Notes under the pieces: generated by a model
Seen by the model: the letters and a program-made list of their open reading frames with translations, nothing else
What the model was told of the DNA's origin: nothing
The model's database searches: none
From: a virus
Taxonomy: Duplodnaviria > Heunggongvirae > Uroviricota > Caudoviricetes
IMG/VR virus record: IMGVR_UViG_2548876858_000013
Direction: 5' to 3' (one strand)
DNA: 32,484 nt
Shown here: positions 1 through 25,236 of the stretch, piece by piece
Position numbering within the stretch: the first letter of the stretch is position 1
Layout: the number at the start of each line of letters is the position of its first letter
Translations under genes and position numbers: made by a program

Positions 1-996
1 TTATGGACGCATTATGGACATTCCTGACACCGGGTTAAGAGTCACTGCATCTTGTAAGAAATCCGGTGCAAAGTGTGCGTAGGTCATAGTTTGCTGAATG
101 TTAGAATGACCCAGGATGCGCTGCAATGTGATTATGTTACCTCCATTCATTATAAAATGTGTGGCAAATGTATGCCTCAAAACATGCACTGCCTGTCCGT
201 CAGGTAAATCGGGTTTTACTTCCCTGAGAGCGTTGCGCACTTTGTAGTAACTGGCATTAAAAAGCCTGCCTGAATTTTTGGTCTTGATCCGTTTAATCAG
301 GTCCTGCGAAACGGGAATTGTCCTGCGCTTTCCGTTTTTAGTTTTCATAAACGTAACCATCTGGTTAATGATGTGTTCAGCTTTTAAATTAGACACTTCA
401 CTCCAGCGTCCACCAGTAGAAAGGCAGACCAGAGTCGCATTTAATTCATCACCATCGAGCATGGATAACAGCCGTGTAATCTCTTCACTGGACAAAAAAG
501 CCATTTCTGTAACAGCTTCACGTAATCGCTTAACCTCACGGAACGGGTTGTGAGAATGGTATTCACCGGCGTCAATTAACTTGGTGAACATCCCGCTCAT
601 TATTGCCAGATGCCGATTTACGCTGGCTGGTTTTAGACCATCGTTCATCATTACAACGCGATAATCAGTTATCGTTTTCTTTGTTAGCTGGTCAGCTCTG
701 GACACTCCCATTTCTGCAAATTTGGCGATTATTGTCGTCAAACGCCCCCGTTCAATATCTCCACGCTCATGTGATTTTCCGTGATATATCCACCATCTTC
801 CTAACAATTCTGTAAGAGTTCGGCGGTCGGCTGGCTTCTCCAGCCACTCTTTGTTGTGGTAGTTAACCAGTACATGACGTTCGAATGCTTGAGCTTCACC
901 TTTAGTTTTAAATTTCCGCCTGATACGTTTTCCATCTGCACCCTGCGGTCTGACGTCCACTTCATAACGACCATCATCGAGCTTTTTAATAGACAT
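1..996 (-). CDS. int: Phage integrase (tyrosine recombinase)
   Basis: 331-aa ORF at the prophage left end, leftward like P2 int; C-terminal region has tyrosine-recombinase-like boxes (HVLRHTFATHF ... LGHSNIQQTMTYAHF). Confidence 0.9.
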   Translation of the reverse strand: MSIKKLDDGRYEVDVRPQGADGKRIRRKFKTKGEAQAFERHVLVNYHNKEWLEKPADRRTLTELLGRWWIYHGKSHERGDIERGRLTTIIAKFAEMGVSRADQLTKKTITDYRVVMMNDGLKPASVNRHLAIMSGMFTKLIDAGEYHSHNPFREVKRLREAVTEMAFLSSEEITRLLSMLDGDELNATLVCLSTGGRWSEVSNLKAEHIINQMVTFMKTKNGKRRTIPVSQDLIKRIKTKNSGRLFNASYYKVRNALREVKPDLPDGQAVHVLRHTFATHFIMNGGNIITLQRILGHSNIQQTMTYAHFAPDFLQDAVTLNPVSGMSIMRP

Positions 997-1089
997 AAAG
1001 CCCTCCGATGACGCTGTTTACTTCTACTACTTGAAAATTAATGCAATTTTCTTTCGTACATTTACTGCACACATAAGCTGAATAAATCG

Positions 1090-1401
1090 TCAGCCAGTCT
1101 TTTGGTCTGAGTGGTGCAAGGTTGTTGAGTCTTGCCCAATGTGCGCGAGCGCCGGGGCTATTTGTCCGCCAGCGGGATCAGTTTCATCAAACATGAACCA
1201 GTCACGGTACTTGCGAAATCTTTCTGGCTTGAAAAATTTCATGCCTGCGTCAAAAGACATCTTTACTTTTCCCTGCTCATATCCAGCATAGGTGTTGTAG
1301 TTAATTCCAGTTAATTCAGCAACTTGCTTCCTTGTCATTCTTTCTGACTCCCGAATAAGTGCGAGTTTCTCTGCTTGAGATGTGATTTGTGTATTTGACA
1401 T
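1090..1401 (-). CDS. C: P2 C-type immunity repressor (HTH_XRE-like)
   Basis: Longest ORF is 1090..1449, but the probable start is the ATG at 1399-1401 (MSNTQITSQ...), giving about 103 aa. Helix-turn-helix segment RKQVAELTGINYNTYAGYEQG; divergent from the downstream cox-like gene as in the P2 immunity switch. Confidence 0.7.
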   Translation of the reverse strand: MSNTQITSQAEKLALIRESERMTRKQVAELTGINYNTYAGYEQGKVKMSFDAGMKFFKPERFRKYRDWFMFDETDPAGGQIAPALAHIGQDSTTLHHSDQKTG

Positions 1402-1505
1402 GAATTGTCGTATCTCGTAATTTATGTTGCATGCGACACGCCAGAACAACGCAGAGCGACTTCAAATAGCTCTGGTTGAATGGCACCAAAGTTGAGGATA
1501 TCAAA
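1402..1505. promoter_or_regulatory. Divergent early promoter/operator region (Pc/Pe-type switch), inferred
   Basis: 104-bp intergenic region between the divergently transcribed repressor and cox-like genes. Position-based inference only; operator repeats not resolved. Confidence 0.45.
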
Positions 1506-1862
1506 ATGAGTATTGGATCAGAAATGAATAACGATGTTGGAGAAAAAGTATCTGATCTCACAAAAAGTAAAAAATGTGACATCAAACTTGCAGCCGCACC
1601 GTCGGATTTGCTCTCGAAAGAGGGATTTGCTCTTTACATCGGTAAGACGCCTCGTGCTGTTGCTGAAATGGCGAAAGCAGGCAAGTTACCAGCCTTTTAT
1701 ATGACGGACCCATTAAAGCCGGGCGGTCATGCTGAGTTATGGATTAATCGCCGTGAGTGGGACAAGTACGCAGCCCAACTAGTTGATGAAGCTCCGACAG
1801 AATGGCATGACTGGAAAAATCGCATTAGTTACAGCAAATCAAGACATGGCCGTGCGGCTTAA
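1506..1862 (+). CDS. cox: Cox-like excision/regulatory protein
   Basis: ATG at 1506 preceded by GAGGAT (1494-1499); the ORF track start at 1476 is a TTG. Position and orientation match P2 cox. 118 aa is longer than the 91 aa I recall for P2 Cox, so the assignment is by synteny. Confidence 0.5.
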   Translation: MSIGSEMNNDVGEKVSDLTKSKKCDIKLAAAPSDLLSKEGFALYIGKTPRAVAEMAKAGKLPAFYMTDPLKPGGHAELWINRREWDKYAAQLVDEAPTEWHDWKNRISYSKSRHGRAA

Positions 1863-1872
1863 GGTGGAAAGG

Positions 1873-2043
1873 ATGAACGAGCCTCGTTGTATTGCTCAGT
1901 TATTGCGTAACGAAAGCCCCAGGGCGATTGACTTCACCATTACCCACGGTAAGGGGCGTAAGGGAATCATTATCCGCACTAAAAAACAGAGTCCGTTAAA
2001 AAAGGCTCTGACCTTTCTGAAAAGCCGGAGGGTATGGAAATGA
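1873..2043 (+). CDS. Small hypothetical early protein
   Basis: ATG at 1873 preceded by AAGGTGGAAAGG; 56 aa. The in-frame ORF from 1783 would overlap cox. Confidence 0.4.
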   Translation: MNEPRCIAQLLRNESPRAIDFTITHGKGRKGIIIRTKKQSPLKKALTFLKSRRVWK

Positions 2044-2540
2044 CAGTGATGACGCTCAATCTCGTTGAAAAACAACCAGCAACTATGCGCCGGATAATTG
2101 GTAAGCATCTTGCCGTCCCTCGCTGGCAGGAGACATGTGATTATTATAATCAGATGATGGAGCGCGAACGGCTAACGGTTTGCTTCCATGCGCAGTTAAA
2201 ACAGCGTCATGCAACGATGCGTTTTGAAGAAATGAACGACGTCGAACGTGAACGGCTGGTTTGTGCAATTGATGAATTGCGTGGGGCATTCTCAAAACGC
2301 CGTCAGGTCGGTGCAAGTGAGTATGCATATATTAGCTTTTTAACTGTCAGTCAGCGCCGTACTTTATTTATGCACGCACGACTGACAGAAAAAGAATTTA
2401 ACCAGCCATACTGGCGAATTAATGAAGAATCATGTTACTGGCGTGATGCTTTATTCCGTGCATTACGTGAATTATTCAGTCTGTTTGAATATGCACCGAC
2501 AATTCTGACGTCGGTAAAACCAGAGCAATATCTGCATTAA
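2040..2540 (+). CDS. Early protein at the P2 gene B position (possible replication protein B, or CII-like regulator)
   Basis: ORF 2034..2540 (168 aa); the ATG at 2040 has better spacing to GGAGGG (2026-2031). Size close to the 166 aa I recall for P2 gpB. Function by synteny only. Confidence 0.5.
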   Translation: MTVMTLNLVEKQPATMRRIIGKHLAVPRWQETCDYYNQMMERERLTVCFHAQLKQRHATMRFEEMNDVERERLVCAIDELRGAFSKRRQVGASEYAYISFLTVSQRRTLFMHARLTEKEFNQPYWRINEESCYWRDALFRALRELFSLFEYAPTILTSVKPEQYLH

Positions 2541-2603
2541 GTAATTAACCAAAGTTTTTAACGCACTTAATCGTGCGGGGCTTCTTTTTGCCTGGAGAAA
2601 GTC

Positions 2604-2816
2604 ATGTATACAGTTTCTGAAAATCAGTGCGGTAAATACGCATTAATGCTGCAACAGGCCAGAACTGAAGCACAGGCCGATGCAGCAACGCGCTTTTCGT
2701 CTCATCTTGATGCCATGATTCGCCACATCACAAAGGCGGAGTTATCCCGCGTGGAGATAGTCGAGTTGCTCAGTCAGGAGTCTGCCAAATTCCATAATCT
2801 AGGACTCAATAAATAA
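2604..2816 (+). CDS. Hypothetical early protein
   Basis: 70-aa ORF with GGAG (2594-2597) six nt upstream of the ATG. Confidence 0.55.
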
Positions 2817-2830
2817 CAGGAAAGTTGGAG

Positions 2831-3076
2831 ATGACAAATACAAAATGGTTCAGGAAACGCTTAACAGATTATCAACTTTCATTACTTAAAAAATTAGATG
2901 ACAAGACTCCACTACATCCTTCAAGCGATGTCTTCCGCTCCTGTCCTAGTCGTGTGGAAAAAGCATTTATAGCAATGGGGAAATGGGGGCTTGTGACCAA
3001 ATCAAGAGAAGGTTTCTGTATTACCGATAATGGCCGGGAAATGATTGATTCTGCGGAGAGGGCATATAGCGAATGA
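2831..3076 (+). CDS. Hypothetical early protein
   Basis: ATG at 2831 with AGGAAAG upstream (2817-2823); the ORF track start at 2825 is a TTG. 81 aa. Confidence 0.55.
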   Translation: MTNTKWFRKRLTDYQLSLLKKLDDKTPLHPSSDVFRSCPSRVEKAFIAMGKWGLVTKSREGFCITDNGREMIDSAERAYSE

Positions 3077-3363
3077 AAAATATATTGCTTAATAACTGGC
3101 TGAAGATTTCAGTCATGAAAAATGGTGATTTGTCGCTAGCTGATATTAAACGCGATAAAAACACTGGGGATATGGTGGAATCAACTATAGCCATTTATGC
3201 GGATAAATTAAATCTCCTGTCTGATGTGGTCAATTTACTTGTTAAACGCGCTGTATTTCACAAGCAAATCTCCTCCGTGGATGAACTGACGAAATTAACG
3301 ACAGAAATTGCCAGCTATTGCGCTGATGAATTTAAAAAACTGAACGACAAAAGGAGCTGGTAA
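3073..3363 (+). CDS. Hypothetical early protein
   Basis: 96-aa ORF; start overlaps the upstream stop (ATGA), suggesting translational coupling. Confidence 0.55.
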   Translation: MKNILLNNWLKISVMKNGDLSLADIKRDKNTGDMVESTIAIYADKLNLLSDVVNLLVKRAVFHKQISSVDELTKLTTEIASYCADEFKKLNDKRSW

Positions 3364-3587
3364 TGCCGGACAACGTAGATTTTATTCAGGAACAACAGGC
3401 TGAATTACTGGAGCGTCAGATTAACGCGGCAAGGGTAAAACATTGCGGTGCTTCTGCGCTGGTTTGCGAAGAGTGTGACGCGCCAATACCTGCTGCCCGT
3501 CGTGCGGCTTATCCGTCAGCCACGCGTTGTGTTTCCTGCCAGTCAGTCTTTGAAGCAAAAAACAAACATTACCGGAGAACGGCATGA
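3363..3587 (+). CDS. TraR/DksA-family C4 zinc-finger protein
   Basis: 74 aa with a four-cysteine motif CEECDAPIPAARR...TRCVSCQ typical of phage TraR/DksA-like proteins; start overlaps the upstream stop (TAATG). Confidence 0.8.
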   Translation: MPDNVDFIQEQQAELLERQINAARVKHCGASALVCEECDAPIPAARRAAYPSATRCVSCQSVFEAKNKHYRRTA

Positions 3588-3859
3588 GTATTCGTATTGA
3601 AATTGGCGAACGTTATGTCGTTACCAGTGACAGCTTTCAGTTTATTCTCCACGAGAAAAAGAGAGCTGAAAGCGGTAAAAACGCCGGTCAGGAATGGCTG
3701 GCGGTGGTTGGTTATTACCCGAAATTAAGCCAGCTCGTTTCCGGCCTGATGCATCACGATATTCTGACCGGAAGCGCAAAGTCTTTTGCTGATTTAAACG
3801 CGCAGGTTGAGCAACTCAGCAAGCGTTGTTCAGAGGCTTTTGGCTCATATGGCCGTTAA
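3584..3859 (+). CDS. Hypothetical early protein preceding gene A
   Basis: 91-aa ORF, start overlaps the upstream stop (ATGA), GGAG upstream. Confidence 0.55.
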   Translation: MSIRIEIGERYVVTSDSFQFILHEKKRAESGKNAGQEWLAVVGYYPKLSQLVSGLMHHDILTGSAKSFADLNAQVEQLSKRCSEAFGSYGR

Positions 3860-6125
3860 AGCCTCCGGGCGTTTTGTCCCTCCGTCAGCATTTGCCGCAG
3901 GCACCGGTAAGGCGTTTACCGGTGCTTATGCATGGAACGCGCCACGCGAGGCTGTCGGGCGCGAAAGACCCCTTACACGTGACGAGATGCGTCAGGTGCA
4001 AGGTGTTTTATCCACGATTAACCGCCTGCCTTACTTTTTGCGCTCGCTGTTTACTTCACGCTATGATTACATCCGGCGCAATAAAAGCCCGGTGCACGGG
4101 TTTTATTTCCTCACAGCCACTTTTCAGCGTCGTTTATGGCCGCGCATTGAGCGCGTGAATCAGCGCCATGAAATGAACACCGACGCGTCGTTACTGTTTC
4201 TGGCAGAGCGTGACCACTATGCGCGCCTGCCGGGAATGAATGACAAGGAGCTGAAAAAATTTGCCGCCCGTATCTCATCGCAGCTTTTCATGATGTATGA
4301 GGAACTCTGCGATGCCTGGGTGGATGCCCATGGCGAAAAAGAATCGCTGTTTACGGATGAGGCGCAGGCTCACCTGTATGGTCATGTTGCTGGCGCTGCA
4401 CGTGTTTTCAATATTTCCCCGCTCTACTGGAAAAAATACCGTAAAGGACAGATGACCACGAGGCAGGCATATTCTGCCATTGCCCGCCTGTTTAACGATG
4501 AGTGGTGGACTCATCAGCTTAAAGGCCAGCGTATGCGCTGGCATGAGGCGTTACTGATTGCTGTCGGGGAGGTCAATAAAGACCGTTCTCCTTATGCCAG
4601 TAAACATGCCATTCGTGATGTGCGTGCACGCCGCCAGGCAAATCTGGAATTTCTTAAATCGTGTGACCTTGAAAACAGGGAAACCGGCGAGCGCATCGAC
4701 CTTATCAGTAAGGTGATGGGCAGTATTTCTAATCCTGAAATTCGCCGGATGGAGCTGATGAACACCATTGCCGGTATTGAGCGTTACGCCGCAGCAGAGG
4801 GTGATGTGGGGATGTTTATCACGCTGACCGCGCCGTCAAAGTATCACCCGACACGTCAGGTCGGAAAAGGCGAAAGTAAAACCGTCCAGCTAAATCACGG
4901 CTGGAACGATGAGGCATTTAATCCAAAGGATGCGCAGCGTTATCTCTGCCATATCTGGAGCCTGATGCGCACGGCATTCAAGGATAATGATTTACAGGTC
5001 TACGGTTTGCGTGTCGTCGAGCCACACCACGACGGAACGCCGCACTGGCATATGATGCTTTTTTGTAATCCGCGCCAGCGTAACCAGATTATCGAAATCA
5101 TGCGTCGCTATGCGCTCAAAGAGGATGGCGACGAAAGAGGAGCCGCGCGAAACCGTTTTCAGGCAAAACACCTTAATCGGGGCGGTGCTGCGGGGTATAT
5201 CGCGAAATACATCTCAAAAAACATCGACGGCTATGCACTGGATGGTCAGCTCGATAACGATACCGGCAGGCCGCTGAAAGATACTGCTGCGGCTGTTACC
5301 GCATGGGCGTCAACGTGGCGCATTCCGCAATTTAAAACGGTTGGTCTGCCGACAATGGGGGCTTACCGTGAACTACGCAAATTGCCTCGCGGTGTCAGCA
5401 TTGCTGATGAGTTTGACGAGCGCGTCGAGGCTGCACGCGCCGCTGCAGACAGTGGTGATTTTGCGTTGTATATCAGCGCGCAGGGCGGGGCAAATGTCCC
5501 GCGCGATTGTCAGACTGTCAGGGTCGCCCGTAGCCCGTCGGATGACGTTAACGAGTACGAGGAAGAAGTCGAGAGAGTGGTCGGCATTTACGCGCCGCAT
5601 CTCGGCGCGCGTCATATTCATATCACCAGAACGACGGACTGGCGCATTGTGCCGAAAGTTCCGGTCGTTGAGCCTTTGACTTTAAAAAGCGGCATCGCCG
5701 CGCCTCGGAGTCCTGTCAATAACTGTGGAAAGCTCACCGGTGGTGATACTTCGTTACCGGCTCCCACACCTTCTGAGCACGCCGCAGCAGTGCTTAATCT
5801 GGTTGATGACGGTGTTATTGAATGGAATGAACCGGAGGTCGTGAGGGCGCTCAGGGGCGCATTAAAACACGACCTGCGAACGCCAAACCGTCAGCAAAGA
5901 AACGGAAGCCCGTTAAAACCACATGAAATTGCACCATCGGCCAGACTGACCCGGTCGGAAAGAATGCAAATTACCCGTATCCGCGTTGACCTTGCTCAGA
6001 ACGGTATCAGGCCGCAGCGATGGGAGCTTGAGGCGCTGGCGCGTGGCGCGACCGTAAATTATTACGGGAAATCTTTCAATTATCAGGTCGCTGATGAGTG
6101 GCCTGGATTTTTGTTACCCATTTGA
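3849..6125 (+). CDS. A: Rolling-circle replication initiation endonuclease (P2 gpA-like)
   Basis: Long ORF 3807..6125; start may be the ATG at 3849 (MAVKASG...) or 3807. Contains an HUH-like motif (PHWHMMLF, about 5038-5060) and a paired-tyrosine motif (GYIAKYISK, about 5195-5220) characteristic of phiX174/P2-type Rep proteins; P2 gene A position. Confidence 0.85.
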   Translation: MAVKASGRFVPPSAFAAGTGKAFTGAYAWNAPREAVGRERPLTRDEMRQVQGVLSTINRLPYFLRSLFTSRYDYIRRNKSPVHGFYFLTATFQRRLWPRIERVNQRHEMNTDASLLFLAERDHYARLPGMNDKELKKFAARISSQLFMMYEELCDAWVDAHGEKESLFTDEAQAHLYGHVAGAARVFNISPLYWKKYRKGQMTTRQAYSAIARLFNDEWWTHQLKGQRMRWHEALLIAVGEVNKDRSPYASKHAIRDVRARRQANLEFLKSCDLENRETGERIDLISKVMGSISNPEIRRMELMNTIAGIERYAAAEGDVGMFITLTAPSKYHPTRQVGKGESKTVQLNHGWNDEAFNPKDAQRYLCHIWSLMRTAFKDNDLQVYGLRVVEPHHDGTPHWHMMLFCNPRQRNQIIEIMRRYALKEDGDERGAARNRFQAKHLNRGGAAGYIAKYISKNIDGYALDGQLDNDTGRPLKDTAAAVTAWASTWRIPQFKTVGLPTMGAYRELRKLPRGVSIADEFDERVEAARAAADSGDFALYISAQGGANVPRDCQTVRVARSPSDDVNEYEEEVERVVGIYAPHLGARHIHITRTTDWRIVPKVPVVEPLTLKSGIAAPRSPVNNCGKLTGGDTSLPAPTPSEHAAAVLNLVDDGVIEWNEPEVVRALRGALKHDLRTPNRQQRNGSPLKPHEIAPSARLTRSERMQITRIRVDLAQNGIRPQRWELEALARGATVNYYGKSFNYQVADEWPGFLLPI

Positions 6126-6385
6126 GTAAAAATGCAGCGTGATTTTATATGCCTTTGAATGGATTATGCGAAGCGCCTCTAAGGCAGATGAGGAGCAATA
6201 GCATGCTGAAGTAGAAGGCTAAATTGTATTGAATCGCTAGCATGTAATTTAAGGCAGCTATTTGATTCGAGTCATAAAAGAGCATCTATTTCGGCTAATA
6301 AAACCATTGCGAGTGACCTTTTGTCGAAGCATAATTCATCTCGAGCGAAGTCTTGCTAGTCTTTCATCGGAATGATGACAGGCGC

Positions 6386-6415
6386 AAAAAAACCACCCTG
6401 GCAGGTGGTTTTTTT
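6386..6415. terminator. Bidirectional intrinsic terminator-like hairpin
   Basis: AAAAAAACCACC / loop CTGGCA / GGTGGTTTTTTT: an A-tract and T-tract flanking a GC stem; 13 nt downstream of the minus-strand small ORF stop and about 260 nt downstream of gene A. Confidence 0.6.
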
Positions 6416-6427
6416 GTTTGAAGCATA

Positions 6428-6541
6428 CTAAAGAATAATACTTACATGGATATTACTGACGTTTACTGACAAACCACTTGGACTACCATATGGATAGCCA
6501 AAGAGGGCCAGAACGAGAATGCAGTAATAGCACTTCTTCAT
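6428..6541 (-). CDS. Small hydrophobic protein (37 aa), candidate small membrane peptide
   Basis: Minus-strand ORF MKKCYYCILVLALFGYPYGSPSGLSVNVSNIHVSIIL, translated by hand. Near-consensus RBS GGAGGAGAT immediately upstream of the ATG and a hairpin terminator just downstream. Below the 60-aa cut-off of the ORF track. Confidence 0.4.
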   Translation of the reverse strand: MKKCYYCILVLALFGYPYGSPSGLSVNVSNIHVSIIL

Positions 6542-7112
6542 ATCTCCTCCTGTAAGCAGAGGGCAATTTCCGCCGATATATGCGCTTCTGAGGCGGAGTT
6601 ACTATTTAGCGAAGTCTTGCCCTGAAATAATGCTCTGTTTAAACGCAAAGTGATCTGGCATATCACCGAACAGAGAGCCTGAACAACACAACATATAGTA
6701 TGTCGTTGTTTCTGGTTGCATTTTATGTTGTGTAATACTGGTTTTGCATCAAGGATGTTTGAGCTTTTTTTGATATAGCTCAAAGTAAAAAGCAGGGACT
6801 ACGGATGATAAGGTATTGAAAGCAATGTAAATTTTTTAAAGTTATTGGTGGCTAAAAAATGCACGGTTTCAATATGGCGGACTTAAATAAGCAATTAAAA
6901 AAGTCATAAATATCACTAAAATCATGGTGTTACGTTTTTTTGTGGGAGCTGCGGTGACGCTTAAGTTGATTTGTCATTAAATAAGCCGTGCATGCAACAA
7001 GTGAATGTTTTTGCATGCGTCGGGGATGCCCGTTCCAGCTGCTCGCGGTCAGAGCTGGTGCGGATCCATAGTATCTATGCAACTGCATTAAAACCGCCAC
7101 ATGAAGCGGGCG

Positions 7113-7131
7113 GGCGAGGCGGGGAAAGCAC
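7113..7131. other. cos site (P2-type 19-nt cohesive end GGCGAGGCGGGGAAAGCAC)
   Basis: Exact 19-mer that I recall as the P2 cohesive end and start of the P2 genome, followed here by TGCGCGCT as I recall for P2; sits in a GC-rich patch within otherwise AT-rich DNA between A and Q. Confidence 0.65.
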
Positions 7132-7355
7132 TGCGCGCTCCATTAACGACCATTACATAATACTATTAGCCTATGAATCGAGTCATGAGATGTTATCTTT
7201 ACGATTCAGGCGAGTGCTTTCGTTACGATGAGTTAGTTTAAGCACACTATCTGCACAAAAAATAATCTGTTGAAGCGATTCATCATTCCTAACGCTCTAG
7301 AGTCTTAAATAAAAATATGTAAAATGCGTAAAATTTTCTGAATTATGGATCAGCT

Positions 7356-8438
7356 ATGCTTGGAACTTCATCACAAAGAGCTATTTCAGTACAACATGTT
7401 GATTTAAATGTAAAGTGTTGGGTCGTTAGACCTGGGATTAAGTATAGATATTTTGCAGACTTCCTTGAACGCAATATGGTTGCTACTGCTCACTTGGATA
7501 GGTTAAGTCCAGATCAAATTGACTTTAATGATGAAATTAACCATGAAAATATTAATCAAAAGGTTGATGGGTTAGATACTATTGGTTCAAGAAATATTCA
7601 TACCCAAATTGAAAATTTCCTCATAGATATGCAGGTCGGTGATGTTGTTTTCACTTTGTCAGGTGATATGGTTGTTCCTGGAGTTATTGCATCTTCCGCG
7701 TATTTTGAGCGTGAATGTTTAGGTAATAATGAAGGGTTTCATGTAAGACGTAGAGTCACATGGGGAGAGCCAGTTCGCAGACGAGAGATTCCATTAGCTC
7801 TTCAGAAATCGTTTACTGCATACCAGACCGTATTCTCTTTGGGCGGGAAGTCAGAAGAAGTACTGCATTGGTTAATGTCATTCTTTATAACGGATAATAT
7901 TTTCTGTACTAGCTTAAGAGTCGAGCAAGCAGAAGCCATTCGGCATCATACTCTTAAGCAGCTGGCTGAGCTGGTCGATAGAGTGCAGGTACTTGCGCTA
8001 TTAATTGGCGAAGAGTTTGATGGCGAGTATACAAACGAAGTTGTTCAGTTTGAGATGGAAAGACTTTCTAATAATGGAGAGTTATCCTTGACTGCTCAAC
8101 AAATGTTGATGTCTCCGGGGGATGTTTGGCTACAATTTAAAACAAATAATAGAAAGGCCGGAATTGCGTTTATGTTAATTATGGGGGCCATTTTTAATCA
8201 TGATGTAGCCTTCGCTTCAACGGTTGATAATCGTATAAGTGAGGAACTTCGATCTCATATTGAAGGGAAAAAAGAGGTTGCAATGGATGGATTAAACTTT
8301 GATAGAGTTTCTCAAGTTCTAGAGTTGCGTTTAAAAAGACAAAATAGAGGCTTTGTTTCTGCTCGTCCAACGAACCGTGAGATCGGACAGGGGATCAATT
8401 TCCCTGAAGATGGTGATGCGAGGCATGCGAGTGACTAA
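7356..8438 (+). CDS. Hypothetical cargo protein, 360 aa, soluble; first gene of a two-gene operon
   Basis: Long ORF in AT-rich DNA; weak RBS (GGAT), so the true start could be downstream. No nucleotidyltransferase GS..DxD motif and no clear HEPN or PD-(D/E)xK motif seen by eye. Confidence 0.7.
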   Translation: MLGTSSQRAISVQHVDLNVKCWVVRPGIKYRYFADFLERNMVATAHLDRLSPDQIDFNDEINHENINQKVDGLDTIGSRNIHTQIENFLIDMQVGDVVFTLSGDMVVPGVIASSAYFERECLGNNEGFHVRRRVTWGEPVRRREIPLALQKSFTAYQTVFSLGGKSEEVLHWLMSFFITDNIFCTSLRVEQAEAIRHHTLKQLAELVDRVQVLALLIGEEFDGEYTNEVVQFEMERLSNNGELSLTAQQMLMSPGDVWLQFKTNNRKAGIAFMLIMGAIFNHDVAFASTVDNRISEELRSHIEGKKEVAMDGLNFDRVSQVLELRLKRQNRGFVSARPTNREIGQGINFPEDGDARHASD

Positions 8439-8440
8439 CT

Positions 8441-9130
8441 ATGAACTTTGAATTTGTAAAAGAACACTGGCTGATAATAGGCATGCTATTCATAGCATGT
8501 CTATTATTAATTTTAAAATTCAAAGATATTTACAGAACACACGATCAGTTTAATAACGTCGTGATGTCATTGTGCGCTGTTTTGACACTTGTGTGGGGAG
8601 GATATACTTTTGATGTTTTGCACCAAAGGGATAAGGCAGAAGCTGATCTTATAGAGTTAAGAAATAGAATTAGAAATACAGAATCGACATTTTTTAATGT
8701 TGACGTTAATGTTGTTAAAATCGATGATGTGTTTTATATAAAGCCTATTGTGACTATTAGGAATAACAGTAATGAGCGAATTTATGTGAAGCTTAATAAC
8801 AAGTCCCTTGCTGTTAGTCGTGTTTTATCGGCCGGTGCAAAGCAAGTCGCTACGGAAGTTTTTTATCCAAATTATTATGAGGAGTTGGCTGTTCTTAATG
8901 AAGAAAGTAGCTCGCAAGGAAAAGCTAAAAATATACCTTTATATGACATATCCGTTCCTATCTCTGCTGAAAGACGCTTGAACTATCTTGTTTCGACAAA
9001 AGAAAAAGGAATGTATTATGTAACATTTAGTGCTGAGGCAATGAACGAAGATGGCTCGCCTGTTTCTAAATACATAAATGGGAAAAAATCTATATGGTTT
9101 TCTTCTTCATATATTGAAGTTAAAGATTGA
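8441..9130 (+). CDS. Hypothetical cargo membrane protein, 229 aa, two N-terminal TM helices plus a beta-rich-looking soluble domain
   Basis: ATG 2 nt after the upstream stop (TAACTATG). Hydrophobic segments WLIIGMLFIACLLLIL and VVMSLCAVLTLVWGGYTF; the remainder is rich in alternating hydrophobic/polar stretches. AT-rich. Confidence 0.7.
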   Translation: MNFEFVKEHWLIIGMLFIACLLLILKFKDIYRTHDQFNNVVMSLCAVLTLVWGGYTFDVLHQRDKAEADLIELRNRIRNTESTFFNVDVNVVKIDDVFYIKPIVTIRNNSNERIYVKLNNKSLAVSRVLSAGAKQVATEVFYPNYYEELAVLNEESSSQGKAKNIPLYDISVPISAERRLNYLVSTKEKGMYYVTFSAEAMNEDGSPVSKYINGKKSIWFSSSYIEVKD

Positions 9131-9225
9131 ATTTCTATTAAACCATATAGTAATTGAAGGTGTTGGGGGTTAATCTTGCCTGGATTGCATAGAATCACGC
9201 CGCCTGGAGACGGCGCTAAGGGTAC

Positions 9226-10254
9226 TTAATTAGATTCTAGACTGTAATCTTTAAAGCGGATGACCTCCTGACCGAGCCAGCCGTTTATCTCGCGGATCCT
9301 GTCCTGTAACGGGATAAGCTCATTGCGGACAAAGACCTTTGCCACTTTCTCAATATCACCCAGCGACCCGACGTTCTCCGGCTTGCCGCCCATCAACTGA
9401 AAGGGGATGCGGTGCGCGTCCAGCAGGTCAGCGGCGCTGGCTTTTTTGATATTAAAAAAATCGTCCTTCGTTGCCACTTCACTGAGCGGGATAATTTTAA
9501 TGCCGTCGGCTTTCCCCTGTGGGGCATAGAGAAACAGATTTTTAAAGTTATTGCGGCCTTTCGACTTAACCATGTTTTCGCGAAGCATTTCGATATCGTT
9601 GCGATCCTGCACGGCATCGGTGACGTACATGATGTATCCGGCATGTGCGCCATTTTCGTAATACTTGCGGCGGAACAGCGTGGCCGACTCATTCAGCCAG
9701 GCAGAGTTAAGGGCGCTGAGATATTCCGGCAGGCCGTACAGCTCCTGATTAATATCCGGCTCCAGCAGGTGAAACACGGAGCCGGGCGCGAAGGCTGTCG
9801 GCTCGTTGAAGGACGGCACCCACCAGTAAACATCCTCTTCCACGCCACGGCGGGTATATTTTGCCGGTGAGGTTTCCAGTCTGATGACCTTACCGGTGGT
9901 GCTGTAACGCTTTTCCAGAAATGCATTACCGAACACCAGAAAATCCAGCACAAAGCGGCTGAAATCCTGCTGGGACAGCCACGGATGCGGGATAAATGTC
10001 GAGGCCAGAATATTGCGTTTGACGTAAATCGGGGAGCTGTGATGCACGGCAGCACGCAGGCTTTTTGCCAGACCGGTAAAGCTGATTGGTGGCTCATACC
10101 ATCTGCCGTTACTGATGCACTCGACATAATCCAGAATGTCACGGCGGTCGAGTACCGGCACAGGCTCGCCAAAGGTGAATGCCTCCATTTTCGGGGCGCT
10201 GGCGGTCATTTTTTTTGCCGCAGGTTGCGGTGTTTTCCCTTTTTTCTTGCTCAT
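9226..10254 (-). CDS. Q: Portal protein (P2 gpQ-like)
   Basis: 342-aa ORF, leftward, next to the terminase gene; matches P2 Q position and approximate length. Confidence 0.9.
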   Translation of the reverse strand: MSKKKGKTPQPAAKKMTASAPKMEAFTFGEPVPVLDRRDILDYVECISNGRWYEPPISFTGLAKSLRAAVHHSSPIYVKRNILASTFIPHPWLSQQDFSRFVLDFLVFGNAFLEKRYSTTGKVIRLETSPAKYTRRGVEEDVYWWVPSFNEPTAFAPGSVFHLLEPDINQELYGLPEYLSALNSAWLNESATLFRRKYYENGAHAGYIMYVTDAVQDRNDIEMLRENMVKSKGRNNFKNLFLYAPQGKADGIKIIPLSEVATKDDFFNIKKASAADLLDAHRIPFQLMGGKPENVGSLGDIEKVAKVFVRNELIPLQDRIREINGWLGQEVIRFKDYSLESN

Positions 10255-12026
10255 CAGTAAAACTCCAGAATGGTGGATGTCAGCGGGGTGCTGATACCGG
10301 CGGTGAGTGGCTCATTTAACAGGGCGTGCATGGTCGCCCAGGCGAGGTCGGCGTGGCTGGCTTCCTCGCTGCGGCTGGCCTCATAGGTGGCGCTGCGTCC
10401 GCTGCTGGTCATGGTCTTGCGGATAGCCATAAACGAGCTGGTGATGTCGGTGGCGCTGACGTCATATTCCAGACAGCCACGGCGGATGACGTCTTTTGCC
10501 TTGAGCACCATTGCGGTTTTCATTTCCGGCGTGTAGCGGATGTCGCGCGCGGCGGGATAGAACGAGCGCACGAGCTGGAACACGCCGACACCGAGGCCGG
10601 TGGCATCAATACCGATGTATTCGACGTTATATTTTTCGGTGAGTTTGCGGATAGATTCCGCCTGGGTGGCAAAGTCCATGCCTTTCCACTGGTGACGCTC
10701 AAGTATTCTGAATTTGCCACCGGCCACCACCGGCGGTGCCAGTACCACGCATCCGGCGCTGTCGCCACGGTGTGACGGGTCGTAACCAATCCATACCGGA
10801 CGGGAGCCGAACGGATTGGCGGCAAACGGCGCATAGTCTTCCCATTCTTCCAGCGTGTCGACCATGCAGCGTTGCAGCTCCTCGAACGGGAACACCGACG
10901 CCTTGTCGTCAACAAATTCACACATGAACAGGTTTTTAAAATCGTCGGCGCTGTTTTCACGTTTGAGCTGCTCAATGTCGAACAGTGTGCAGCCACCTTT
11001 CAGGGCGTCCTCAATGGTGACAATCTGCCGCCACTGGCCGTCCGCACAGAGAAGACCTCCGGCAAGTGCGTTATGACTGACGTCGATTTCCACGCGTTCA
11101 GCGGCGCTGGCGCGTCCCCGGTTAAACAGTTCACCGGACCAGAACGGATAGGCGTCGTGCGCCAGCGTGGACGGGGTGGAGAAATAGGTCGAGCGCAGGT
11201 GACTCTGTGAGGCCATACCTGATGCCACCTTACGCAGTACCTGAAAATTCGGGATCCAGAAAATCTCGTCGACGTACAGGTCGCCGTTATGGCTCTGCGC
11301 GGTGTTGGAGTTGGTGCCGAGAAAAATCAGTTTTGCGCCGTTATTGCCCAGGACAATCGGGTCACCGGTCAGGTCAACGTCAACCAGCCGGGCAAAGGCG
11401 ATGATGTATTCGCGGAACACATACGCCTGTGTTTTACTGGCCGACAGAAAAATCTGGTTATGACCGGTTTTCAGGGCGCGCAGCAGCGCCTCGCGGGAAA
11501 AATAAAACGTCGCGCCAATCTGGCGGGATTTCAGGATATCGCGGATGCGGTGCTCAAGCCCGGCGCGATACCAGTGCAACTGATATTCGAAAGACTGCTC
11601 AAAGAAAATCTGCTCCAGCTTTTCGATGGCTTCGTCACTGAAAAAATTCTTTTTCGGTTTGCGACGCCCGCCTTTGTTGCGGTTAGCGACGTTCGGATTA
11701 AGGTCTGCCTCGTTGCCGGTCTGGCTGTAGCGGTTGACCCGTGCCAGTCGTTCAATCTGGCGTCCCAGCAGGTCAATTTCCTTGAAGTCACCGCCGGTTT
11801 TCTGCGGTTTGATGATGAGCCGGGTCAGCCGCGCTTCCAGACTCATTTCGACACGGCTGATGGGGGCAACGCTGTCCCAGCCGTCGCGCTGTTTCCAGCT
11901 CTGCACCGTCGGGCGTTTCATCTGCAACATGGCGGCAATCTGCGGCACGGAAAACCCCTGCCAGTACAGCAGCGCCGCCTGACGACGCGGGTCGTGTAAA
12001 AGGGTGGTGTCTGTGGTGATGGTCAT
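10254..12026 (-). CDS. P: Terminase large (ATPase) subunit (P2 gpP-like)
   Basis: Start taken as the ATG at 12024-12026 with GAGG five nt upstream, giving 590 aa (recalled P2 gpP length); the ORF track start at 12056 is a TTG. Stop overlaps the Q start by 1 nt. Confidence 0.9.
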   Translation of the reverse strand: MTITTDTTLLHDPRRQAALLYWQGFSVPQIAAMLQMKRPTVQSWKQRDGWDSVAPISRVEMSLEARLTRLIIKPQKTGGDFKEIDLLGRQIERLARVNRYSQTGNEADLNPNVANRNKGGRRKPKKNFFSDEAIEKLEQIFFEQSFEYQLHWYRAGLEHRIRDILKSRQIGATFYFSREALLRALKTGHNQIFLSASKTQAYVFREYIIAFARLVDVDLTGDPIVLGNNGAKLIFLGTNSNTAQSHNGDLYVDEIFWIPNFQVLRKVASGMASQSHLRSTYFSTPSTLAHDAYPFWSGELFNRGRASAAERVEIDVSHNALAGGLLCADGQWRQIVTIEDALKGGCTLFDIEQLKRENSADDFKNLFMCEFVDDKASVFPFEELQRCMVDTLEEWEDYAPFAANPFGSRPVWIGYDPSHRGDSAGCVVLAPPVVAGGKFRILERHQWKGMDFATQAESIRKLTEKYNVEYIGIDATGLGVGVFQLVRSFYPAARDIRYTPEMKTAMVLKAKDVIRRGCLEYDVSATDITSSFMAIRKTMTSSGRSATYEASRSEEASHADLAWATMHALLNEPLTAGISTPLTSTILEFY

Positions 12027-18297: not shown

Positions 18298-19083
18298 TTA
18301 TGAGTGGTTTTTATTTGATGCTTTGTATTCTAAAACCTTCTTATTGGCGTAAAGGAATTTTGTATATGACAGGAATATAAGCAGACCTGAAATGAAATAG
18401 GTTAGGGATATTATTAATAATGTTTTTCTGTGGCTGTTATTATCTTTAATCTCCTGACTTAACCATTCGGAGTCCTCCTTGTTTAGCTGTAAGAGCTTAT
18501 TGCAGGCGATCTCGGGAAGTGTGTCTTTTATAAATACGTTTTGCAGACTCTTGCAATCGGCAAGGCTATAAGTTTTATTAAATTCAACCGTTTTATTTTT
18601 GAAGGATAAAAGAACTTTGTCACTATAAACATAGTACATCATATTTTTATATGGTATACCTATGGCATCCCTTACTATAGCGGATTGTTCATTGTGTATA
18701 TAACATGCGAAGAGAATATAAATAATACTGGCCAGAATTACAATTATTGTTTTAATTATGTGTGGTGGTTTTGTTATGTCACCCCAGATGCGAGTAAGGA
18801 AAAAATACGATGTTTTTAGTTTTCCATCAATCAGTCCCTGCTGTATCATTCTCACATTTTCAATGCCTGATACATTGATTCCGTTAATTATTTTAAATAG
18901 TTGAATGTCGCGCCACTCGCGGTCAAGTCTTTTTAATTTTTTGTCTGAATATCCAAAATTGAAATAATGTGCAATAAGCCTCATAAGGTTACTTTTACCA
19001 AAGCTAAAAAATGCTAATACTGCAAAGCTACAAAGGAAAAAAACGATTAGCCCCCACACATTAGTCACATTATAGCTGACCAT
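18298..19083 (-). CDS. Hypothetical cargo membrane protein, 261 aa, three predicted TM helices
   Basis: Strong RBS (AAGGAG six nt upstream of the ATG at 19081-19083); very AT-rich; hydrophobic segments near the N-terminus (VWGLIVFFLCSFAVLAFFSF), middle (IIKTIIVILASIIYILFACYI) and C-terminus (LLIISLTYFISGLLIFLSY). Sits at the S-V variable locus. Confidence 0.75.
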   Translation of the reverse strand: MVSYNVTNVWGLIVFFLCSFAVLAFFSFGKSNLMRLIAHYFNFGYSDKKLKRLDREWRDIQLFKIINGINVSGIENVRMIQQGLIDGKLKTSYFFLTRIWGDITKPPHIIKTIIVILASIIYILFACYIHNEQSAIVRDAIGIPYKNMMYYVYSDKVLLSFKNKTVEFNKTYSLADCKSLQNVFIKDTLPEIACNKLLQLNKEDSEWLSQEIKDNNSHRKTLLIISLTYFISGLLIFLSYTKFLYANKKVLEYKASNKNHS

Positions 19084-24537: not shown

Positions 24538-25236
24538 TTATATTTTTCCATGCTTTTCACCGTCAAATCGAATCATGCTAGGATCAAGAAAATAAATCAA
24601 ATCAATTAACGCATGTTGTATTCTGATTAGCCTTTCTTTATAAGGCTCGATATTTTTTGTCATATTTATCACTTCATTGTTTAAATCTAAAAAAAATGGT
24701 TCATTGACAAAGCAATTTTCCTTTGTGAAACCGCCGTAACCTATGCAATCAAATCCAGCATCTGTTGATATCAACATCTTTTCCGCAATAGCTCTCTGCT
24801 CTCCTATGAAAAACATAAAATACTGACCAAAGGCGTCTGTTTGGATTAATGAGTTAATATTGTTCTGTAATCTAATAAACTCCCTCATTTTTTTATTTTT
24901 TTCTAGACTAAGGTATTGAATGTCTATGCGGGCAGCTTCTGTCCATGCAAAGAACTGGGAAAAAAGAAAAACCGTATTTTTGATAACATAATCTTGTTGG
25001 CGCTTACTCCCATTATGATAAAACTCTTCAATAAACCCTAATTCTAATATGTTATAAATGCGGCTTTGTAAGTCTGAAGCTGAGCGAATTAACGGTTCAA
25101 TATAGTACTGATGTTTTCTCCTTACATCCAGTGTTTCATTGAGCTTGTTTATTCTATTCTGATTATAGGTAGATATAGCAATAGAGATTATAGATATTGC
25201 ACCACCAATAAGGCTTGAAATTAATGCCACACTCAT
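24538..25236 (-). CDS. Hypothetical cargo protein, 232 aa, N-terminal TM helix plus soluble domain
   Basis: RBS AAGGA seven nt upstream of the ATG at 25234-25236; very AT-rich; N-terminal hydrophobic segment VALISSLIGGAISIISIAISTY; at the G-FI variable locus. Confidence 0.7.
   Translation of the reverse strand: MSVALISSLIGGAISIISIAISTYNQNRINKLNETLDVRRKHQYYIEPLIRSASDLQSRIYNILELGFIEEFYHNGSKRQQDYVIKNTVFLFSQFFAWTEAARIDIQYLSLEKNKKMREFIRLQNNINSLIQTDAFGQYFMFFIGEQRAIAEKMLISTDAGFDCIGYGGFTKENCFVNEPFFLDLNNEVINMTKNIEPYKERLIRIQHALIDLIYFLDPSMIRFDGEKHGKI

Follow-up and report, generated by a model that had tools for sequence, protein, structure and literature searches.

A co-inherited gene pair between cos and the portal gene of a P2-like prophage as a candidate sensor-plus-membrane-protein defence system

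We analysed a 32,484-nucleotide (nt) stretch of DNA from a tailed virus of the class Caudoviricetes (IMG/VR record IMGVR_UViG_2548876858_000013; the whole of this stretch is referred to as the window), in which two adjacent open reading frames (ORFs), ORF1 and ORF2, lie between the cos site and the portal gene Q of a P2-like prophage. ORF1 encodes a cytoplasmic protein with a predicted PUA-like reader fold at its N-terminus, whereas ORF2 encodes a membrane protein, the bulk of which probably faces the periplasm. The two are genuine genes, they are inherited as a unit, and their relatives recur in the mobile elements and islands of diverse bacteria. The pair would best be described as a mobile conflict module of two genes that is carried as prophage cargo and is most likely directed against phages. 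Our leading reading of its function, which we put forward tentatively, is that a sensor of modified bases or nucleotides acts on a membrane effector, so that infection is aborted or excluded.

The gene pair in the cos-to-Q interval and its inheritance

The features of the locus are as follows (window coordinates; bp, base pairs; aa, amino acids; pI, isoelectric point).
7078..7139, no strand assigned: conserved core of the P2-type cos site, matching P2 and homologous to P2-like prophages
7140..9243, plus strand: AT-rich cargo segment of 2104 bp, substituting the 183-bp cos-to-Q spacer of P2, including the tQ terminator
7140..7355, plus strand: leader upstream of the pair, with weak promoter-like hexamers only (for instance, TAGAGT-16-TAAAAT at 7298-7325 and TTAAAT-18-TAAAAT at 7305-7334)
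7356..8438, plus strand: ORF1, 360 aa, ATG start, encoding an acidic cytoplasmic protein (pI 5.45) that is a member of Pfam family DUF8426 (PF28530)
8441..9130, plus strand: ORF2, 229 aa, ATG start, encoding a membrane protein and translationally coupled to ORF1
9198..9215, no strand assigned: GC-rich hairpin (CGCCG-8 nt-CGGCG) between ORF2 and Q, identified from sequence and fold
9226..10254, minus strand: portal gene Q, with the terminase gene P lying past it

Recomputation bore out what the first-pass annotation, a model's reading of the letters, had reported for the coordinates and lengths of both frames and for the 2-nt gap between the ORF1 stop codon and the ORF2 ATG. The same held for its placement of the pair between cos and Q, in DNA richer in A and T than the neighbouring phage genes and ending approximately 95 bp before the Q stop codon. 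The measured GC content was 0.31-0.44 over positions 7150-9250 versus 0.50-0.63 in the flanking A, Q and P genes, and ORF2 and Q were convergent, with 95 nt between their stop codons. The pair is placed between cos and Q because matches to P2 bracket positions 7140-9243 on either side. In blastn comparisons with P2 (NC_001895), window positions 7113-7139 matched P2 bases 1-27 exactly, and positions 9244-10433 matched bases 211-1400. The 19-nt P2 cohesive end (GGCGAGGCGGGGAAAGCAC) corresponded to window positions 7113-7131, the homology of other P2-like prophages to the window picked up again at 7078, and bases 7100-7147 were matched in approximately 2000 E. coli genomes. The hairpin at 9198..9215 is a possible terminator; its position corresponds to that of the P2 tQ terminator, it is not followed by a T-run, and the terminator scan made no call.

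ORF1 and ORF2 are genuine genes rather than chance reading frames, because identical proteins occur on many contigs, representative relatives are numerous and the structure models are confident to moderate. Identical copies of ORF1 were present on 247 contigs and of ORF2 on 468, all from E. coli and all named 'hypothetical', and seven of the 5426 complete E. coli genomes carried the whole cargo segment (99.7% identity), as did four IMG/VR contigs. At E<=1e-3, an exhaustive profile search with ORF1 returned 900 representative relatives, of which 244 also passed E<=1e-10; almost all of the 900 were 340-390 aa long and aligned across both domains. Within the 90% identity cluster of ORF1, several E. 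coli entries were 51-320 aa in length, some of them carrying no partial flag, which suggests that the gene is occasionally truncated or frameshifted in some strains.

Inheritance of the two genes as a unit holds down to approximately 20% identity. A homologue of ORF2 was located immediately 3' of the ORF1 homologue in Serratia, Pectobacterium and Shewanella (the last with a 4-nt overlap), on a metagenomic contig near hsdR and in three further distant metagenomic or prophage loci, with the spacing in paired loci ranging from a 4-nt overlap up to a few nt. The identities of ORF1/ORF2 homologues to the window pair were 45/43, 41/47, 38/38, 28/36, 28/30, 24/23 and 20/17%. Of the 12 genomic or metagenomic contexts sampled, nine had an adjacent homologous membrane partner, as had all 13 informative viral contigs, that is, the IMG/VR contigs extending beyond the ORF1 homologue. 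Three shorter ORF1 relatives (325-342 aa) had no partner; one stood beside a type II restriction-modification pair and two were in housekeeping-like neighbourhoods. The first of these, a relative of 340 aa from a hydrothermal-vent metagenome (contig L015, positions 311-3695), lies directly 5' of an MvaI/BcnI-type restriction enzyme and a C5 DNA methyltransferase, which hints at a tie between the reader domain and cytosine methylation in this branch.

Predicted architecture of ORF1 and ORF2

The two proteins were divided into the following parts, all encoded on the plus strand (pLDDT, predicted local distance difference test; TM, transmembrane; Ig, immunoglobulin; FnIII, fibronectin type III).
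7377..7925, plus strand: N-terminal domain of ORF1 (aa ~8-190), predicted PUA-like fold of the EVE/YTH type
7944..8360, plus strand: C-terminal alpha/beta domain of ORF1 (aa ~197-335), with the motifs HHxLKxLxExxDRxQV and MSPGDxW
8379..8435, plus strand: disordered acidic C-terminal tail of ORF1, with a conserved F-P-(E/D)-D-G motif (pLDDT <50 for aa 342-360)
8468..8530, plus strand: first hydrophobic helix of ORF2 (aa 10-30), hydropathy maximum 2.84, variable in sequence
8531..8611, plus strand: K/R-containing loop and H-D-x-F-N-N juxtamembrane motif of ORF2, followed by the conserved TM helix (aa 38-57), with invariant columns
8612..9121, plus strand: helical stalk of ORF2 (aa 58-80, QRDKAEADL...TEST) and Ig/FnIII-like beta-sandwich (aa 83-227), predicted to be periplasmic

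As a clue to function, the reader fold predicted for ORF1 is the strongest. The AlphaFold2 model (pLDDT 82.7; predicted template modelling score 0.81) placed VcaM4I, 1zce (Atu2648) and YTHDF2 in the top ranks of a Foldseek search, independently of the other fold search. The top structural neighbours included the restriction endonuclease VcaM4I and the YTH-like N-terminal domains of McrB proteins of type IV restriction, and on the predicted model the N-terminal domain is of the PUA-like type. Among 63 diverse family members, residues W22, D96, G109, W136, S253 and G255 were invariant, and R25, H46, Q84 and F88 of the N-terminal domain were nearly invariant across the broad family; the invariant Trp and Asp residues of this domain could line a putative base pocket. 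The reader domain is acidic (family median pI 5.6), which weakly favours a small ligand over the binding of extended nucleic acid. In the acidic tail, F349 and P350 were nearly invariant, and the median pI of this segment was 4.1. The C-terminal domain gave no match in the Protein Data Bank (PDB), either by sequence or by fold search. HNH, PD-(D/E)xK and AAA+ domains were not found in ORF1 by Pfam, PADLOC, PDB sequence or fold searches, and neither protein showed a nuclease or other enzyme domain.

The membership of ORF1 in DUF8426 was taken from the precomputed Pfam column, where PF28530.1 is given for its 100%-identical cluster representative (P0001) and for most relatives. In addition, one RefSeq record names a near-identical protein (99.7% DNA identity) 'DUF8426 domain-containing protein'. 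The local Pfam copy used for scanning was without the PF28530 model, and a direct scan of ORF1 gave no match. ORF1 had no match in NCBIfam and matched only a family of unknown function in PHROGs. In PADLOC it matched PDC-S02 only (E 2.4e-12), with aa 20-206 aligned to profile positions 3-185 of 324. All ten of the diverse relatives examined also matched PDC-S02, in each case via the N-terminal domain only, and several relatives additionally matched an internal part of the PADLOC type II restriction-enzyme model.

ORF2 belonged to no family in PADLOC (E<=1), Pfam, NCBIfam or PHROGs. In its model (pLDDT 73), residues 10-30 form one helix and residues 34-80 a second, long one, and a beta-sandwich takes up aa 83-227. 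Two N-terminal TM helices had been assigned to the protein at first pass; the first of these passed a strict hydropathy cut-off, whereas the second, although it is the conserved one (pattern SLCAxxTxxWGGYTF), was less hydrophobic and fell below it. The distant ORF2 partners on contigs L016 and L019 were without the first helix, and in them a K/R-rich N-terminal tail precedes the conserved helix. In the two-helix forms K/R residues are borne by the inter-helix loop, and a K/R-rich segment was present ahead of the conserved helix in all ORF2 homologues, single-helix ones included. Because this segment precedes it, the positive-inside rule predicts an N-in/C-out orientation for the conserved helix. 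The stalk and beta-sandwich are therefore probably periplasmic, with only the short H-D-x-F-N-N segment in the cytoplasm. The sandwich is similar to numerous Ig/FnIII-like domains, among them ApaG, the luminal domain of TMEM106B and the N-lobes of arrestins.

Mobile contexts and the two sides of cos

The cos-proximal gpA-gpQ region is a documented defence hotspot of P2-like phages, in agreement with the variable defence locus named at first pass, and several systems have been validated there (Rousset et al. 2022, PMC9122126). Table S5 of that study contains this very pair (WP_024234794 and WP_024234795) as 'hypothetical + hypothetical', and its main text holds no description of testing it. Divergent P2-like phages carry related pairs in their A-Q region, where they may lie on the A side or the Q side of cos. 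The tin and old genes of P2 are located on the A side of cos, while the pair described here is on the Q side, at a place where P2 has no more than 186 bp. Two divergent P2-like viral contigs carry the pair on the A side, upstream of a cos-like GGCGNGGCGGGG site (L027, ~5001-7030; L028, ~3409-5438), with approximately 1.5-2 kb of other DNA between cos and Q.

Outside the A-Q region, a related pair was situated between cI and int of another P2-like prophage, and a lambda-like viral contig (L031, 4097-8227) carried one (49% and 54% identity) between the tail genes K (JAB/NlpC-P60) and I. The insertion in the latter also includes a 147-aa ORF without assignment. Another related pair occurred in a separate element beside a D5-type primase, together with an FRG-domain protein and a helicase, the Pectobacterium pair belonged to an integrase island with CcdAB, TacAT and AbiE, and the pair on the above-mentioned metagenomic contig was close to HsdR.

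The cargo on either side of cos swaps independently, and the P2 hotspot consists of two cargo sites, as judged by comparing window positions 7078-7139 with L001, L010, L022-L025 and L037. The seven complete E. coli genomes with the pair between cos and Q carry a reverse transcriptase (retron-like) gene cluster on the A side, and none of the seven has the A-cos segment of the window. Among the IMG/VR contigs with the cos-Q pair, the distance from A to cos varied from 898 to 2831 bp. Conversely, strain E24377A combines the A-cos segment of the window with other cos-Q cargo (an AAA ATPase and a 145-aa protein).

Several further segments of the window were noted. No feature is annotated in the A-to-cos segment (6102-7077, 975 bp), which at least 148 complete E. 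coli genomes share. Within it lies a 37-aa hydrophobic ORF on the minus strand (6428..6541, MKKCYYCILVLALFGYPYG...) with a strong GGAGGA ribosome-binding site, followed on the same strand by a CCACC/GGTGG hairpin with a T-run at 6388-6417; together they look like an unannotated small-protein gene cassette. Past the tail-fibre genes, a 232-aa ORF on the opposite strand (24538..25236, minus) showed weak similarity in PADLOC (1.1e-6) to RTasTM, which is the transmembrane partner in DRT systems, and had no match in Pfam; it is possibly a second cargo site of the prophage. Running antisense to the late genes around it, a 261-aa ORF (18298..19083, minus) with no Pfam or PADLOC match is a possible further moron.

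Proposed function, alternatives and comparison with known systems

In the sensor-effector reading introduced above, the PUA-like domain of ORF1 would probably bind a modified nucleobase, presented either by a free modified nucleotide released in infection or by the modified nucleic acid of the invader. Binding would be relayed by the C-terminal domain or the acidic tail to the cytoplasmic juxtamembrane segment of ORF2. ORF2 itself would reside in the inner membrane, with its H-D-x-F-N-N motif on the cytoplasmic face and its stalk and beta-sandwich in the periplasm. Once activated, it may oligomerise and either compromise the membrane or block further DNA entry, and the infection would be aborted or excluded. 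We favour a role in defence because the pair sits in a hotspot with experimentally validated systems, and because its pairing is strict and its mobility moron-like. A sensor is favoured because there is precedent both for PUA-like sensing of N6-methyl-dAMP (m6dAMP) and for a transmembrane effector triggered by the same nucleotide. PUA-like domains can serve as sensors of m6dAMP, which is released when phages degrade Dam-methylated host DNA, and a transmembrane protein (MisC of type II Metis) can be the killing effector for this signal (preprints 10.1101/2025.11.05.686725 and 10.64898/2026.01.15.699771). A related pair, of a hydrolase and a transmembrane protein, has been found in the P4 hotspot.

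The first-pass annotation had suggested a soluble sensor or enzyme joined to a small membrane protein, in a layout fitting abortive infection. The layout proved to be conserved and mobile, and the predicted reader fold of ORF1 is in line with a sensor; no enzymatic domain was found, and the probably periplasmic bulk of ORF2 complicates a simple scheme in which a sensor activates a small membrane toxin. The pair is catalogued yet uncharacterised, and its unusual feature is this probably periplasm-facing partner. A more specific proposal, which we regard as doubtful, is a trans-envelope immune module in which a bitopic membrane protein with a periplasmic functional domain is connected to a cytoplasmic reader of modified bases or nucleotides. 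The contact, directly between the proteins, would be made between the six-residue H-D-x-F-N-N motif and the acidic F-P-E-D-G tail, and the signal could run in either direction across the inner membrane. A cytoplasmic nucleotide alarm might lead to action in the periplasm, or the sensing of injection in the periplasm might be passed to a cytoplasmic DNA reader. We know of no description of either direction for PUA-like sensors.

A number of observations weigh against the sensor-effector reading. The EVE, YTH and ASCH models of Pfam matched neither ORF1 nor any of the 63 family members at E<=1, and the PUA-like assignment comes solely from the predicted structure. Motifs II and V of the m6dAMP pocket of PUA-Cal (VWWGWWxKxxExxP and TPxYY) were absent from ORF1, which because of these differing pocket motifs falls outside the m6dAMP-sensing PUA family. 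On the side of ORF2, the likeness of the beta-sandwich is generic and uninformative on function, and only approximately 12-40 residues are predicted to be available in the cytoplasm for the reception of a signal. The shorter ORF1 relatives exist without a partner, two of them in housekeeping-like contexts, and searches of sequenced phage isolates and plasmids turned up no relative of the pair. The one PDC-S02 representative assayed elsewhere failed to protect against T4, T5 or T7, and we found no report of a phenotype or test for this pair in the literature. Finally, no convincing promoter was identified for the pair: a consensus scan of the leader (7140..7355) gave no plus-strand site at threshold, and the best site under relaxed settings matched at 8 of 12 positions.

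Some of these points would equally suit a role outside defence, with ORF2 as a membrane toxin and ORF1 as its neutraliser in a toxin-antitoxin or addiction pair stabilising the element, or with the two proteins serving lysogenic conversion or an envelope function. The negative result for the PDC-S02 representative, the housekeeping-like contexts of solo ORF1 relatives and the CcdAB and TacAT modules flanking the Pectobacterium pair are all compatible with such a role. However, the pair recurs at validated defence hotspots and at the moron sites of unrelated phages, and the reader fold is typical of conflict systems, so we consider this explanation unlikely.

The predicted periplasmic location of most of ORF2 invites a Kiwa-like scheme with the reverse flow of information, in which the periplasmic domain senses envelope perturbation or the injection apparatus and recruits or releases ORF1 at the entry site, where ORF1 binds the modified DNA of the invader and blocks its replication or expression. 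Partnerless ORF1-like proteins, one of them beside a type II restriction-modification pair, imply that ORF1 may act alone, and VcaM4I and McrB employ the same reader fold in DNA recognition. Nevertheless, neither a nuclease nor an ATPase is recognisable in the acidic ORF1, neither protein matched KwaA or KwaB in PADLOC, and the topology of ORF2 is itself a prediction; we regard this course of events as rather unlikely.

It appears still more improbable that ORF2 confers superinfection exclusion by blocking genome entry at the inner membrane or in the periplasm, with ORF1 acting as an accessory regulator or chaperone. Carriage of the module exclusively by temperate elements and islands, along with a predicted periplasm-facing ORF2 devoid of an enzymatic domain, would agree with exclusion, but the strict co-inheritance with a 360-aa cytoplasmic reader-fold protein would be left unexplained, and no similarity to known exclusion proteins was found in Pfam, PHROGs or PADLOC. 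The idea of a type IV restriction-like enzyme, in which ORF1 reads the modified base and its C-terminal domain is a cryptic nuclease, is prompted by the VcaM4I and McrB neighbours and by the match of the N-terminal domain to part of the PADLOC type II restriction-enzyme model, but it is barely credible given that Pfam, PDB sequence and fold searches revealed no HNH, PD-(D/E)xK or other nuclease signature, that S253 and G255 are the only invariants of the C-terminal domain across the broad family, unlike a catalytic set, and that a membrane partner is foreign to type IV systems.

Returning to the sensor-effector pair, profile (hidden Markov model) searches yielded no validated defence family for either protein, and in PADLOC ORF1 matched only the candidate PDC-S02; structure-based searches gave the PUA-like fold of ORF1. 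The first-pass description of the pair as uncharacterised stands as regards tin, old and validated systems, to which PADLOC, Pfam, NCBIfam and PHROGs gave no match, but must be amended in that ORF1 already falls within Pfam DUF8426 and the pair appears in Table S5 of Rousset et al. The DUF8426 entry, of which ORF1 is a member, has no assigned function and mentions neither the fold nor the conserved membrane partner. PDC-S02 is an unvalidated, single-gene 'phage defence candidate' that is homologous to ORF1 over the N-terminal domain. Only positions ~3-185 of its 300-346-position profiles aligned, the C-terminal halves differed, and the ORF1 family has an adjacent membrane partner, unlike a single-gene system. 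The EVE, YTH and ASCH readers share the fold predicted for aa 8-190 of ORF1, with no match at the level of sequence models, and the fused nuclease or GTPase of type IV restriction systems (EVE-HNH, McrBC-like) is absent from ORF1.

Metis (types I and II) and PUA-Cal-HAD have a similar proposed logic, in which a PUA-like pocket senses a modified nucleotide signalling infection. Type I Metis and PUA-Cal-HAD, however, employ a calcineurin-like phosphoesterase and a HAD phosphatase, and neither ORF matched PF00149 or PF13419. Type II Metis (MisB-MisC) includes the HAD phosphatase MisB, whereas the pair described here is without a HAD gene. As described, MisC has three transmembrane helices and an intracellular nucleotide pocket, in contrast to the one or two helices and the probably periplasmic beta-sandwich of ORF2.

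In general layout the pair resembles RexAB of lambda and Kiwa (KwaAB), in which a cytoplasmic nucleic-acid-binding protein is paired with a membrane protein on prophages or islands. Unlike ORF2, RexB and KwaA are four-helix proteins without a periplasmic beta-sandwich, and neither system showed sequence similarity to the pair in Pfam or PADLOC. More broadly, no component of Kiwa or of the other validated PADLOC v2 systems was matched, ORF1 giving PDC-S02 only and ORF2 nothing at E<=1. The P2 genes tin and old share the gpA-gpQ hotspot with the pair and encode unrelated proteins; neither the ATPase and TOPRIM architecture of Old nor Tin was matched in Pfam, NCBIfam, PHROGs or PADLOC, the Tin sequence not being compared directly.

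The features that define type IV restriction, Metis, PUA-Cal-HAD, Kiwa and Old are missing from the pair, which is a candidate for a hotspot-borne defence system composed of a sensor and a membrane protein. If active, it would give a function to DUF8426 and its relatives (approximately 900 representative clusters), and would represent a third class of effector for the sensing of modified nucleotides or bases, namely a periplasm-facing membrane protein, beside nucleases and enzymes that deplete nucleotides or NAD.

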